Shown here: piece after piece, positions 7,950 through 12,676 of the stretch
How the letters are laid out: each line of letters begins with the position of its first letter
Position numbering within the stretch: the stretch's first letter is position 1
From: a virus
Lineage: Duplodnaviria > Heunggongvirae > Uroviricota > Caudoviricetes
Virus record (IMG/VR): IMGVR_UViG_2721755721_000005
Direction: 5' to 3' (one strand)
Length of the DNA: 48,167 nucleotides
The notes under the pieces: generated by a model
Told to the model about the DNA's origin: nothing
What the model saw: only the letters and a program-made list of their open reading frames with translations
Databases searched by the model: none
Position numbers and translations under genes: made by a program

Positions 7950-8321
7950 ATTAAAGAGCATTAGTTCAGATATGAATTGACATTTTCATGGCACAGGGTT
8001 GAGCTAGCGTGGTTGTCCGCTTTGTGCCAGTAACGGACGTTTTAAACATTTGTAATCACTAATCCGCGTAGAAAAGATCTCACCGCATAATCAGGCAAAC
8101 ATGCAGGAACATCTGAGGAGTTTTTTCGAGATACGGACAAGGAAAAGCAGCAGAACCTCGTTGAGGCCCTCTCAGGTGGTGCCGGAAAGAGATGTTATGG
8201 TAAATATCGCAGACATAGAGCATTTGAAGTGATATTTAGCATACTTATGCTCTTATTGTAGATTGGCTTTTACCAAATAAGCTTTTTACTACAATGTATG
8301 AACATAAGCCGATTGATCTTT

Positions 8322-9029
8322 TTAGGCAGCAGTCGCTTGCTCACTTCTGCTATCACCAAACATAGTCTGTGCTGCCATGTCAACATCTCCAGATACTGAA
8401 TTCTCGTATCTTCTAATAGCTTCATCTGGCGTTTCGGTAAAGGTTTTTTCAGCAAAAATAATATCTTGTAGTTCGCATATCTTTATTTTCAACTTTCTTA
8501 GGGTGTCACTATCGTTTTTTCCTGTGATCCTCACACAAGCATTAATACGATTAATTATTATTTCTTGGAATATGTTTTTCTTTTCCTCAATTATTCTTCT
8601 AAAAAGAACTATTGTTTTTTCTTTTCCTATAATATCCTCTTCAAGAGGCGCTTTTGCTTTCTCTATATCTTTCTTTGACGCAAACTCATTAAATGCAAAA
8701 GTGGTTATGTAACCTATTATTATAGGAAGGAATGAATAGGAAGTTGGTACTTTTGTTGTTAGGTAGGTTGATATGGCTCCTATGACTATTAATACTGTTC
8801 TTTTATACCAAGGTACAGAGATTATGAATTCGAAAAAACGTGTTATCGCCACATGCATCTTTTGCAAAAGGCAAAGGATTAAAACTACTATAACAACGAT
8901 AATAAGTATCGCAGCAAAACTTGAAGCGACCTCAGTTACTGATGAATTACTATTTTTTTCAGCAGTATAGCTACTTACAGTAGATGGCGTATTGATTTCT
9001 AATTGTTTGTTTTCAATCTCGGTGCCCAC
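8322..9029 (-). CDS. Uncharacterised membrane protein (gene B of a two-gene accessory operon): three predicted TM helices plus a ~110-aa charged C-terminal domain
   Basis: 235-aa ORF with a GTG start 10 nt after the gene A stop. Hydrophobic segments AAILIIVVIVVLILCLL, TVLIVIGAISTYL and FLPIIIGYITTFAF. Strongly AT-rich by eye. Confidence 0.6.
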   Translation of the reverse strand: MGTEIENKQLEINTPSTVSSYTAEKNSNSSVTEVASSFAAILIIVVIVVLILCLLQKMHVAITRFFEFIISVPWYKRTVLIVIGAISTYLTTKVPTSYSFLPIIIGYITTFAFNEFASKKDIEKAKAPLEEDIIGKEKTIVLFRRIIEEKKNIFQEIIINRINACVRITGKNDSDTLRKLKIKICELQDIIFAEKTFTETPDEAIRRYENSVSGDVDMAAQTMFGDSRSEQATAA

Positions 9030-9038
9030 GCTAATCCC

Positions 9039-9509
9039 TTAATCTTTGGCCATTCCTAATTTTTCAAATAATGTCGGTGCTCCAGCTAAAATTGCGGCTA
9101 GCATTCTTAACGAATCACCAGATAAGTTGAGCATCTTTTCATCAACAGCAATCTCTTCTACTGTGAAAACAATCAATGGTGTTTGTTCTTCTTCAATTAT
9201 TGTCGATTTTATTCCTATTGATTTTCTATTAAAATTATTAGCAATGGACAGTAGCGATTGTTTATCTTTGCCTATTTTCATGGCGTTGGTGTTAAAAGAG
9301 TTCATCAGTCTCATTACTATTATTCTAGATGCTACTCTCTTCTCAAGTATTAAATTGACTTCATTGAATTTAAATGCAACCAATTCAAATCCTTCTTCTC
9401 TCTCTAATTCTTTTATATTATTAAACTCACTTATGCTAGATATAATATCTATAAGGCTTTGATTATTTCTCTTTTGTGTTTCGGTTTTTTTCCTTCTTCC
9501 AGAAGACAT
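9039..9509 (-). CDS. Uncharacterised soluble protein (gene A of the two-gene accessory operon)
   Basis: 156-aa ORF with AAGGA SD about 8 nt upstream of the ATG; basic N-terminus (MSSGRRKKTETQKR); no recognisable motif; AT-rich. Confidence 0.6.
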   Translation of the reverse strand: MSSGRRKKTETQKRNNQSLIDIISSISEFNNIKELEREEGFELVAFKFNEVNLILEKRVASRIIVMRLMNSFNTNAMKIGKDKQSLLSIANNFNRKSIGIKSTIIEEEQTPLIVFTVEEIAVDEKMLNLSGDSLRMLAAILAGAPTLFEKLGMAKD

Positions 9510-9560
9510 CTTTTTTCCTTAATGAATTTATGTGTGGTGATAGTATCCAGCTCTAGATAA

Positions 9561-9590
9561 GAAAAAACACCGCTACCAATGGTGTTTTTT
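9561..9590. terminator. Perfect palindromic hairpin flanked by an A-run and a T-run (bidirectional terminator-like)
   Basis: AAAAAACACC-gctaccaat-GGTGTTTTTT, about 50 bp upstream of the gene A start codon. Confidence 0.4.
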
Positions 9591-10537
9591 CAAGGTTCTT
9601 AGAGCTACCAACTTTTTGAACCGTGGTAACTGGCTTTAACGGAGCGCAGTAACCAAAACTGTCTTTTCAGTGTATCTGTAGTTAGGCCGACACTTCAAGA
9701 ATTCTTTGTACTTTCGTGCGTTTACTCGCTCCATAAAACCAGTTACCAATGGTTACCACCATTGGCGATTTATCGTGCCTGTCAAGATTGGGATCAAGAG
9801 AACAGTTACCTAAATTGCTGTGGTAGTCGGGTGGATCGGGGAGTTCGTGCATATAGCCAAGCTTGGATCGCACCACCTTTAAGGAAACCCGTTGTACGGA
9901 AAGGAATGGGAAAACGCGACCTTACGGCGGTCTGCGACGGGTAAACCTCATGGTGGGAACAGGGCACCGCTTTGCTGAGATGCAGGATAGGGCAGACCCC
10001 CGCAAAATGTCGTCATTTGCGGTGTCTGCCCCGAAAACAGAATATTTTTTCCTGAGCCTGCAGCTGGCTCTAAAAACCGCTATCGCCTCACAAAGCTCGC
10101 TGCTTAACGCCTCACGTTCACCCACTAAACAGCGCACCTGTTAACCGTGAATCACGTACAGATTTATCAATATACTTCGCACGTTTACTGCCGGAAATCC
10201 TCCCTTAATTCCCGCATTTGCCCGAAACCGCCCGCCATTCACCCGCGTGCGCAGGCATTCAGATGCGCAGAAATTAGCATGGGTGTTTTTTCACAATACG
10301 GACGGGGAATAGTGCCGGAAACGGGCCGGACGCGCAAAGATCGCGCTGAGTGGGTGCGGCCAGGTCTTGTTGAGTTTAATGTAATAGTAAATCCAGTCTT
10401 TATGAGTGAAACGTCCACTTCTCGCTCATGGCGGCACTTTAGTGGGCCTGTAAAGTGGATGTTGCCAATCAACGATGAGCAAGGCATTCTAATTGCTTGA
10501 GGTGTTTTCGTATAAAATTTAAACAAAAGGAGCAATT

Positions 10538-11887
10538 ATGTCGAGTCTGAGAGATATGGAAGAGCTTATTGGTGATATCGTGGATGTTGAGCTTAAAGAA
10601 TACATGCGAGAAGCACTAATTTGCTATATGACTGGTGCTCATCGAGCATGCGTAGTGCTTTCGTTCATTGCCATCTTCGAGGACTTATTCAAAAAGTTAG
10701 ACGGGATGGCCACTACGAATAGAGTTGCTAAAGCGATCTTTACAGAAATATCCAAGAAAAGAGATGAACAAAAAGTTTACGAAAATGATTTGCTTAATAA
10801 ATTGAAATCTGAAAAAATAATTACAGAGATTGATGCTGACTTTCTCACTGTGTTAAGAACTCTCAGAAATAAAGCTGCACATCCTTCAGGCCATAAACCG
10901 ACAGCTGAAGAAGCTCGATATGTGTATTCAGAAACTATAAATAGATTTCTTTCAAAGCCAGTTCTTTCAACAACTCAAGTTGCCGACCAAATCCTATCTA
11001 AGCTTACCAATTCATACTTATTCCCAACATCTAATATTCAGGACCATGCTATCGTAGTAAATGAGGGTGTTAAAAATCTTCATCATGATGGTTACTCATA
11101 CCTCCTGAAAAAACTCATAGAGTCATTAGACAATGCCAATGAACAAATAAAACTTAATGCAAAAAGATATCTTTTAGGCCTATCTTTTAAACCACTAAAT
11201 AACGATGTTCTTGAGCAAATAAAAAAGCATTTCTTAGTTGAGTGCAGTTCGGATGAAAGTAAAAGACAATGTTTAATGGAATGTATTTCAACCAATGGTA
11301 ATTTGCTAAAAGGTATGGAGGATATTGTTTACTTAAGATTAAATAAAATGTTTGAGGATACAATTTCAACTACAAAATCCTCCGATCAGCATACCTATTT
11401 AAGGCACCCTGTACAGATTGCAATTAGTGTTCTTGGGTTGGAAAGAGAAATTATTGATAGATGCTTTAGATCTAGCATTGATGATGTTCTTGAAAAATAT
11501 AAACTTAGCCCAGTGCTGATGAAGAATATAAAAGGGCATGAGTGGGCTAGACAGAAAGTCATCCAATCAATTTTTGGGCAGGCCGGATCTACAACTTTCT
11601 CTGAAGCTAACACTTTTGCTCAGAGTGTAAATTCATACGATGGTGACATCTCCAGTTTGATGGACAACATAAATTGCTTCGAACTCATTGTTCATATCTG
11701 TGCTGCAGGCAATTGGGGTTCATTTGGAGCTGAAGGTATGATGAAAGGAAAATTCAATAATATCCCTAAAATTAAAGAAAAGGCTGTTAAAGCTCTGCAG
11801 GATAATATCTCTAATTGCCAAGAAATAATTGCAAGAATAAATCCAGCTCTATGTGAAGCAAAGGATTTTGAAGAAAGATATCTTTGA
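10538..11887 (+). CDS. HEPN-domain protein (Rx4H motif, DUF4145/Apea-like) with a ~300-aa uncharacterised C-terminal region
   Basis: 449-aa ORF with AAAGGAG SD. Motif LRTLRNKAAHP (nt 10864-10881), i.e. R-x4-H, in a predicted helical N-terminal domain. AT-rich; divergent from the two-gene operon. Confidence 0.7.
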   Translation: MSSLRDMEELIGDIVDVELKEYMREALICYMTGAHRACVVLSFIAIFEDLFKKLDGMATTNRVAKAIFTEISKKRDEQKVYENDLLNKLKSEKIITEIDADFLTVLRTLRNKAAHPSGHKPTAEEARYVYSETINRFLSKPVLSTTQVADQILSKLTNSYLFPTSNIQDHAIVVNEGVKNLHHDGYSYLLKKLIESLDNANEQIKLNAKRYLLGLSFKPLNNDVLEQIKKHFLVECSSDESKRQCLMECISTNGNLLKGMEDIVYLRLNKMFEDTISTTKSSDQHTYLRHPVQIAISVLGLEREIIDRCFRSSIDDVLEKYKLSPVLMKNIKGHEWARQKVIQSIFGQAGSTTFSEANTFAQSVNSYDGDISSLMDNINCFELIVHICAAGNWGSFGAEGMMKGKFNNIPKIKEKAVKALQDNISNCQEIIARINPALCEAKDFEERYL

Positions 11888-11906
11888 TATTCGTTTTAAA
11901 AATAAC

Positions 11907-11929
11907 AGAGGGAATCAATGACTCCCTCT
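11907..11929 (+). terminator. Weak hairpin terminator after the HEPN gene
   Basis: AGAGGGA-atcaatgac-TCCCTCT followed by TTTAT. Confidence 0.35.
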
Positions 11930-12520
11930 TTATAGGAGTTATTGGGTGGGTTAATATAACGTTTATTCACCATCAATCAACCGCAACCTTAATGGTGTTA
12001 TTTTCAACCGCGAACTTCCGCTTCTCGCTCAAAGCGGACTAAAATGTTGGCTTGCGCCGGACTTTGCGTATTTAAATAAGTGCTGGTGGTGACTGGTTGC
12101 TGTGTTCTATTTCTACAGAACAAAATTACAGAAACTATACCCAATAGTTGTATTGAATCACTGACGAGACAGCCTCATATTTATCAGGACAGGTGTACGT
12201 TCTATACAGGAGGTTGCCGTGCTGGTTCTCAAATGTGCGCTGGCTATTGTGGCTGTAATGGCGATTTATTGTCTTGCCATTATTCTTATGGATCGCCTTT
12301 CTGACTGATTTCATATTGGCGAGGTAACGGGAGTTAAGTAGAATGGCTGCGGGTGCTTGAGGCTGTCTGCCTCGGGCATGAACACCAACGGCAGATAGAG
12401 AAAAGCCCCAGTTAACATTACACGTCCTGCAAGACGCTTAACATTAATCTGAGGCCACATCTATACTTTGCATACGTAGATTAGCCTCTTACCGACCAAA
12501 AGGTCAAAGAGAAGCGGGCT

Positions 12521-12676
12521 ATGAAGCAGCAAAAGGCGATGTTAATCGCCCTGATCGTCATCTGTTTAACCGTCATAGTGACGGCGCTGGTAACGAGGAA
12601 AGACCTCTGCGAGGTACGAATCCGAACCGGCCAGACGGAGGTCGCTGTCTTCACAGCTTACGAACCTGAGGAGTAA
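12521..12676 (+). CDS. hokD: Hok/Gef-family type I toxin (HokD/RelF-type), 51 aa
   Basis: Not in the ORF track (under 60 aa). Translation MKQQKAMLIALIVICLTVIVTALVTRKDLCEVRIRTGQTEVAVFTAYEPEE has the Hok pattern: one TM helix plus the conserved RK.LCE.R...EVA.F.AYE periplasmic tail. Confidence 0.85.
   Translation: MKQQKAMLIALIVICLTVIVTALVTRKDLCEVRIRTGQTEVAVFTAYEPEE

Follow-up and report, generated by a model that had tools for sequence, protein, structure and literature searches.

The 48,167-nucleotide (nt) stretch of viral DNA analysed here (the window; IMG/VR record IMGVR_UViG_2721755721_000005, Caudoviricetes) carries on its plus strand, at positions 10538-11887, a gene for a 449-amino-acid (aa) protein that we describe as a DARNA/BxaP-like HEPN-HEAT protein. 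Residue numbers refer to this protein unless another one is named, and nt positions to the window. The open reading frame (ORF) appears in the ORF list exactly where an earlier reading of the DNA without database searches, hereafter the sequence-only reading, had put it. It starts with an ATG, 5 nt downstream of a Shine-Dalgarno sequence read off the DNA (AAGGAG, 10527-10532, plus strand), and corresponds to RefSeq entry WP_000096969.1, a 'DUF4145 domain-containing protein', at the identical locus. The gene is AT-rich, as had been pointed out, with a GC content of 35.3% compared to 49.4% for the window, and is followed 20 nt past the stop codon by a GC-rich hairpin (11907-11929; terminator scan and sequence), which the scan rates as terminator-like on the minus strand and whose T-tract is weak on the plus strand. 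The protein is 100% identical to its cluster representative P0001, and its full-length homologues are about 450 aa long; an alignment of 48 of these, reaching down to 33% identity, represents what we call the 449-aa family.

The pattern R....H occurs exactly once in the protein, as R110-NKAA-H115 within LRTLRNKAAHP (residues 106-116, nt 10853-10885). The sequence-only reading had singled out this very stretch, but was off by one nucleotide for the motif (10864-10881 instead of 10865-10882, plus strand) and had numbered its key residues R112 and H117 instead of R110 and H115. With 20 arginines and 10 histidines among 449 residues, 0.44 such matches are expected by chance; the bare match is therefore not significant, and the case for a HEPN domain must rest on conservation, profiles and fold. 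R110, N111, K112, A114, H115, P116, S117 and G118 are invariant in 48 of 48 homologues, and the extended motif RNx3HP is present in 206 of 225 relatives. The Pfam model DUF4145 (PF13643), an established HEPN family (PMC3710099), matches residues 86-127 with 26.2 bits, above its curated gathering cutoff of 23.1 bits, the match being a partial one (model positions 41-81 of 88). An AlphaFold2 model built from the alignment of the 48 homologues is all-helical, without strands (mean pLDDT 90.5, pTM 0.71), and a HEPN fold can be recognized in this confident prediction. A DUF4145-type HEPN domain at the N-terminus, together with structure prediction as a means to verify it, had been put forward on the basis of the motif, and both profile and model bear this out, leaving hardly any doubt that the N-terminal domain (residues ~1-142, 10538-10963, plus strand) is a HEPN ribonuclease (RNase) domain, in which R110 and H115, followed by the invariant P116, are the predicted catalytic motif.

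For the remaining ~300 residues (~143-449, 10964-11884, plus strand), the sequence-only reading had seen no recognizable feature and had suggested a sensor or regulatory domain. [quoted passage not shown] The second gains support from these relationships, and we presume that the domain serves as sensor and in oligomerization.

DARNA was originally found as PD-T7-3 (E. coli ECOR30, RCP48690.1; 'HEPN'; abortive infection) in the screen of Vassallo et al. 2022, and was renamed in a 2026 preprint (10.64898/2026.02.22.705581). According to this work, it is a dodecamer of 456-aa subunits, consisting of a HEPN domain (1-159, with R117x4H122) and a Pds5-like helical C-terminal domain (160-456), and acts in abortive infection as a nuclease that single-stranded DNA (ssDNA) switches on and that cuts the anticodon loops of transfer RNAs (tRNAs). 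The mutants H122A, F368A, W406A and R98E are dead, with H122A abolishing tRNA cleavage in vitro, and structures are available as PDB 9tra-9tre. The activating dinucleotide 'CT' is read by F368, D372, N402, Q403, Y405, W406 and N408; F368 stacks on the thymine, D372 hydrogen-bonds the cytosine and Q403 reads the thymine (10.64898/2026.02.22.705581). In its overall organization, DARNA resembles the 449-aa protein closely, both being encoded by a single gene, about 450 aa long, and composed of an N-terminal HEPN domain with an Rx4H-P motif and an all-helical HEAT/Pds5-like C-terminal domain.

This resemblance is reflected in profile comparisons. The PADLOC model for PD-T7-3 matches the 449-aa protein with an E-value of 4.2e-15 over residues 6-282 (model positions 5-298 of 432), leaving the distal third of the protein uncovered, and matches all 48 members of the 449-aa family, the best with E 8e-22; DARNA itself is not among the best 120 sequence matches of the protein. 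For a direct comparison of families, the DARNA family was recovered from an aligned fragment, with a representative, P0121, that carries 16 of 16 published functional residues. hhalign aligned the two families with a probability of 98.1% (E 1.3e-13) over 270 columns, residues 6-278 against DARNA 7-296, at 20% identity. The resulting residue map superimposes catalytic R117, H122 and P123 of DARNA on the invariant R110, H115 and P116, and P134, invariant in DARNA (46 of 46), on P121, a proline in 41 of the 48 members of the 449-aa family. The shared core further includes the pairs E25/E26, R36/R37, K53/K54 and E82/E88 (449-aa protein/DARNA), in addition to R110/R117, H115/H122, P116/P123 and P121/P134. 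The family profile also found PDB entry 9wxf, 'Dandelion' (460 aa, 12 chains), with E 3.2e-11. As 7 of 7 testable published residues of DARNA match this protein at an offset of +5, PDB 9wxf and 9wx2 ('Dandelion' and 'Dandelion-hepn') represent DARNA/PD-T7-3 with a 5-residue N-terminal offset. A literature search yielded no paper describing a protein under the name Dandelion, which suggests that a second group has solved the structure of DARNA independently.

The second characterized relative, BxaP (ORF376 from an Akkermansia muciniphila metagenome-assembled genome; Duan et al. 2024), was discovered through its structural similarity to PD-T7-3 (PMC10799925). It combines a DUF4145 N-terminus with a HEAT-like C-terminus and provides ~1000-fold protection against T4 by abortive infection, which is lost in the mutant P121A; its gene lies within type 3 BREX or type I restriction-modification (R-M) loci, yet the protein works without BREX or R-M (PMC10799925). 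Full-length BxaP has 500 aa. Like the 449-aa protein, it thus has a DUF4145-type HEPN domain followed by a HEAT-like domain, and hhalign aligned the two families over 397 columns (residues 4-426, probability 95%, E 2e-8) at ~17% identity; the alignment of residues 1-425 with BxaP 1-412 had probabilities of 95.3-95.7% and E-values of 2e-8 to 9e-9. R110, H115, P116 and P121 even carry identical numbers in the two proteins; P121 (10898-10900, plus strand), which the hhalign residue map equates with P121 of BxaP and P134 of DARNA, is a proline in 46 of 46 BxaP family members. Moreover, the Pfam family PF27235 (AF_1680), for which precomputed matches exist for P0001 and nearly all full-length relatives, and which our local Pfam scan did not return, is also assigned to one member of the BxaP family. 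DARNA and BxaP align to each other over the N-terminal ~190 columns only, which places the 449-aa family between the two. BxaP differs from the 449-aa protein in a C-terminal extension of ~75 aa, in the residue following the catalytic arginine (R-C instead of R-N) and in its genomic setting, since it resides in BREX/R-M loci whereas the 449-aa gene stands alone in prophages.

The 449-aa protein is therefore not an orphan, but has relatives with a published mechanism (DARNA) or phenotype (BxaP), and it is already partly recognized in databases through its RefSeq DUF4145 label, PF27235 and the PADLOC PD-T7-3 match. We consider a function in defence highly probable and, with only slightly less confidence, conclude that the gene encodes a stand-alone abortive-infection defence protein of the DARNA/BxaP architecture.

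How far the resemblance extends into the distal part of the C-terminal domain was judged from two sequence motifs. Motif 1 (S351-T-T-F354-S-E-A357-N358-T-F360, 11588-11617, plus strand), a candidate site for reading a ligand (a nucleic-acid base), begins a predicted helix at residues 354-374 and is strongly conserved in the 449-aa family (S in 45, F/Y in 47, A in 48, N in 47 and F360 in 45 of 48 members). Near-invariant motifs of the same spacing are present in all three families, each at the start of a predicted helix: S351-x-x-F354-x-x-A357-N358 in the 449-aa protein, S365-x-x-F368-x-x-A371-D372 in DARNA and S333-x-x-W336-x-x-Q339-N340 in BxaP, where Q339 takes the place of A357. A census found the motif in 153 of 225 members of the 449-aa family, 91 of 108 DARNA relatives and 101 of 120 BxaP relatives. 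The correspondence with BxaP S333xxW336xxQ339N340 lies inside the significant hhalign alignment; that with DARNA S365xxF368xxA371D372 depends on a non-significant local alignment and on matching helix topology. Motif 2 (A390-G-N-W393-G394-S-F396, 11705-11725, plus strand), likewise delineated from column counts (A390 in 48, G394 in 44, A395 in 45 and an aromatic residue at 396 in 43 of 48 members), occupies the position of DARNA N401-x-Q403-x-Y-W406-R407, but with different chemistry: this second element of DARNA, with N401 in 45, Q403 in 46 and R407 in 46 of 46 sequences, is replaced in the 449-aa family by A390-A-x-W-G394-A395-[FWY]. The BxaP segment 'QAGEGS', which we had equated by eye with 'QAGSTT' of the 449-aa protein, is placed on motif 2 by hhalign, so that the alignment by eye was discarded as spurious. 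Of the residues with which DARNA reads 'CT', only F368 is plausibly retained, as F354; D372 corresponds to N358 (47 of 48), and Q403 and R407 have no counterpart, the alignment in this region not being statistically supported. Judging from these patterns of conservation, the distal pocket is probably homologous but has been rebuilt, so that its ligand specificity should differ from that of DARNA.

[quoted passage not shown] The two proteins share their architecture, are of similar length (449 versus 455 aa) and match strongly over the first 60% when compared as profiles, predicted helices succeed one another in parallel order in both models, and motif 1, S-x-x-F-x-x-A-[D/N], stands at the start of a helix in both families. 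Nevertheless, identity is ~20%, Pfam assigns PF27235 to the 449-aa family and no family to DARNA relatives, and many of the residues on which DARNA depends have changed. D372 is an asparagine in 47 of the 48 sequences, and neither Q403 nor the invariant R407 has an equivalent. R98, an RNA contact that is essential in DARNA (R98E), falls into a gap of the alignment, and of the other RNA contacts, K69 corresponds to A66, K201 to Y188 and K204 to K191, a residue that the 449-aa family does not conserve. The α4-α5 loop that occludes DARNA (81-85; P82-x-S84-P85) and is considered autoinhibitory is disrupted by a three-residue deletion of P82-Y-S84, where the 449-aa family has an invariant Q78. Among the residues at DARNA interfaces, the inter-hexamer residue N33 is replaced by T32 (T or A in the family), F6 is unaligned and E347 belongs to the part without an alignment. 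Finally, R-N instead of R-H follows the catalytic arginine, the loop past the catalytic histidine is ~7 residues shorter than in DARNA, and the gene is prophage or island cargo, unlike DARNA, which has been reported to occur outside defence islands (10.64898/2026.02.22.705581). In view of the missing occluding loop, the missing R98, the exchange of D372 for N358 and the absence of Q403 and R407, regulation, RNA contacts and ligand specificity are all expected to differ from DARNA, and strict orthology appears unlikely.

Assignment of the 449-aa protein to abortive infection of the DARNA/BxaP type has to contend with a number of further observations that weigh against it. Over the last ~170 residues, comparison of the C-terminal thirds of the 449-aa protein and DARNA by hhalign gave probabilities of 0.2-1.4%, and cross-family hidden Markov model (HMM) scores for this third equalled those of reversed-sequence decoys. 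In DARNA, it is this part that bears the ssDNA-reading site. As similarity here is not supported, we treat the match of motif 1 to DARNA as a lead only. To judge from the alignments, R98, K201, K204, N33, the 81-85 loop, Q403 and R407 of DARNA are not conserved in the 449-aa family, and consequently neither the tRNA substrate nor the ssDNA trigger can be transferred with confidence: tRNA as the target is a reasonable guess that we would rate at somewhat below even chances, and the exact trigger of DARNA is a doubtful one. A simple scan found no clear σ70 promoter directly upstream of the gene, and a literature search retrieved no paper citing WP_000096969.

By analogy with DARNA, we would envisage the following mode of action for an abortive-infection protein of this architecture. 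The HEPN domains would pair into composite active sites, probably within a higher-order oligomer, and the RNase would be held inactive as long as the cell is not infected. At its tip, around S351, F354 and N358 and the aromatic residues at 393 and 396, the C-terminal domain may bind an infection-specific cue, most likely exposed single-stranded nucleic acid. Binding of the cue would switch on cleavage of RNA, most likely in tRNA anticodon loops, whereupon translation and phage production would stop and the infected cell would be lost.

The distribution of the gene was analysed at several levels. Among 5,426 complete E. coli genomes, 31 carry it (0.6%), in 29 cases with an identity of at least 99.9%, and 26 of these 29 copies are found in the same prophage island as in the window. 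One identical copy is located next to the vat toxin island, in an island that has an integrase gene, and two copies of 73% identity directly adjoin the integrase of a P2/186-like prophage. Relatives are present on 22 viral contigs of IMG/VR, and in two that were checked the gene directly follows CII, CI and integrase at the end of the contig. In P2/186-like prophages, the terminal position beside the integrase, taken by the family gene in L018 (3289-6356) and L023 (3303-6341), both from IMG/VR, and in L007 (7019-9404), is a recurrent cargo slot. Farther afield, an exhaustive HMM search over representatives of 50%-identity clusters returned 212 of them at E<=1e-30 and, when the limit was E<=1e-3, 1,946, with the family occurring in Enterobacterales, Vibrio, Burkholderia, Psychrobacter and others. 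The Pectobacterium relative is near a putative AbiC and is found with a MobA/TraD element, the Vibrio relative is near SLATT/GAP1/DO-GTPase genes, and the Burkholderia relative lies beside an OLD-TOPRIM ATPase and SymE. A tblastn search of 50,697 phage genomes with the 449-aa protein gave no match, PHROGs and NCBIfam gave no useful one, and a Foldseek search of the viral structures in BFVD returned nothing below E 0.03. In plasmids of Klebsiella, Enterobacter and Bacillus, tblastn matches were confined to residues ~3-215, at 33-37% identity (e.g. NC_016515.1, 7679-8272), those in Klebsiella overlapping with, or lying next to, a protein annotated as acting in replication initiation; the matches may come from shorter relatives that comprise the HEPN part alone. 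No conserved neighbour of the 449-aa family was found in the contexts compared, and such scattered mobile contexts without a constant partner are what marks a defence gene that stands alone and moves horizontally. Along with the PADLOC match, this agrees well with the proposal of the sequence-only reading that the protein is a plausible single-gene defence protein.

The surroundings of the gene in the window recur with 100% identity in the chromosomes of several E. coli strains and belong to a Qin-type lambdoid prophage inserted beside ynfA/rspAB. Integrase, excisionase, exonuclease, dicB, ydfA/B, CI/Cro, YdaT, an O-like gene and DUF977 precede an AT-rich island (~8.0-12.3 kb, 38.6% GC), and hokD/sok, rem, DUF968, RusA, Q, lysis genes, terminase and portal follow it. 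Besides the 449-aa gene, the island comprises a 1-kb gap and two minus-strand ORFs that could not be annotated (8322-9029 and 9039-9509, 33% GC), which form a two-gene operon for proteins of 235 and 156 aa. Weak matches of the 235-aa protein point to a hydrophobic stretch around residues 20-100 that resembles a membrane segment; for neither protein did Pfam, PADLOC, PHROGs or NCBIfam yield a match of significance. Their divergent placement next to the 449-aa gene, noted previously, is real as regards orientation, but the two are set apart by 1,028 bp that hold the remnant of a ColE1-type replicon. As homologues of the operon genes are absent both beside the Pectobacterium copy and in the other E. 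coli contexts of the 449-aa gene, we have no evidence for a functional link, and the operon may be an independent, uncharacterized cargo system. The right boundary of the island is marked by a canonical hok/sok type I toxin-antitoxin module (12351-12526 and 12521-12676, plus strand; hokD, and sok RNA RF01794 with 97.9 bits). Presumably, relBE sits beside hokD at the equivalent position of the K-12 Qin prophage, and the region by hokD looks like a variable cargo slot. In strain STEC719 (NZ_CP041411.1), an IS3-family element splits the island, so that the match to window positions 8000-12500 falls into two pieces, 5.8 kb compared to 4.5 kb. No SSB gene is annotated in the 28.5 kb that were inspected. 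Lambdoid phages of the Qin type rely on the SSB of the host, and such reliance would be compatible with a prophage that bears a system sensing SSB or ssDNA without triggering it upon its own induction.

The replicon remnant consists of a ColE1-type antisense RNAI (9559-9661, minus strand; Rfam RF00106, score 68.4 bits with the gathering cutoff at 47, E 1.7e-11) within ~800 bp (~9544-10354) that match thousands of small mobilizable ColE1-like plasmids in two pieces, at 70-78% identity. The presence of this degraded plasmid origin inside a prophage island, directly upstream of the 449-aa gene, suggests that the island arrived by co-integration of a small plasmid. It could also be taken to mean that the 449-aa protein is an anti-plasmid rather than an anti-phage factor, with plasmid replication RNA as its target, similar to Ishtar1 and Ishtar2, monogenic proteins with an N-terminal HEPN domain (DUF4145 or DUF3644) that clear plasmid RP4 (10.64898/2026.07.06.735840); the MobA/TraD element around the Pectobacterium homologue would fit this idea. 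However, the ColE1 remnant is absent from other contexts of the same gene and more simply marks the arrival of the island. [quoted passage not shown]

More improbable still is a role as an accessory or regulatory subunit of an R-M or BREX system, or as an HEPN-MNT toxin. R-M enzymes are often encoded together with DUF4145 or fused to it, BxaP resides, as mentioned, in loci of type 3 BREX or type I R-M, and there is a weak NCBIfam match of the 449-aa protein to a type I R-M endonuclease (E 0.021). Yet no methylase, restriction endonuclease, helicase, BREX or MNT gene is found within 12 kb on either side or in the other contexts examined, BREX or R-M genes being absent from every examined context of the gene and its relatives; BxaP itself works without BREX or R-M; and HEPN-MNT toxins are single-domain proteins of ~130 aa, compared to 449 aa here. 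RAZR (PD-T7-4) shares with the 449-aa protein a single-gene organization and a DUF4145-type HEPN domain, and is an abortive-infection RNase activated through higher-order assembly. Nonetheless, it is a small protein with an N-terminal zinc finger and a C-terminal HEPN domain that is triggered by ring-forming phage proteins, unlike the 449-aa protein with its N-terminal HEPN domain, its large HEAT-like domain and no zinc finger. The reading of Rx4H as a chance motif in a helical protein of non-enzymatic function could appeal to the 0.44 bare matches expected, but is effectively refuted by the invariance of motif and flanks in homologues down to 33% identity, by the DUF4145 match above cutoff, by the fold and by the homology to a biochemically proven HEPN RNase, and was rejected.

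We therefore return to a defence protein of the DARNA/BxaP architecture. Since it lacks the loop, R98, Q403 and R407 of DARNA, and equally lacks the BREX/R-M link and the C-terminal extension of BxaP, the 449-aa protein is best placed in a family of its own within a DARNA/BxaP-type HEPN-HEAT superfamily. As DARNA is the sole member of this architecture for which trigger and target are known, and BxaP is known by its phenotype only, a third, prophage-borne family, with its conserved catalytic core but systematically replaced counterparts of the regulatory and ligand-reading residues of DARNA, offers a comparison from which the adjustment of one scaffold to different infection cues might be learned. 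Tentatively, and as a possibility that we regard as less likely than not, the 449-aa family might be such a re-tuned sensor of the DARNA type, having kept the HEPN engine and the helical scaffold, lost the loop and rebuilt the base-reading pocket, with N358 for D372 and small or aromatic residues for Q403 and R407, and responding to a different cue with a different locking mechanism. If so, the cue could be another ssDNA dinucleotide, an RNA, or an intermediate in phage or plasmid replication to which DARNA is blind, and the three sister families, with their D, N+A and N+Q versions of the motif, would constitute a natural specificity series for a new class of sequence-reading innate immune sensors. 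In more immediate terms, the RefSeq label 'DUF4145 domain-containing protein' can be replaced by that of a likely anti-phage abortive-infection RNase, and attention is drawn, as a site for such cargo, to the variable stretch that separates the replication module of Qin-type prophages from hokD.

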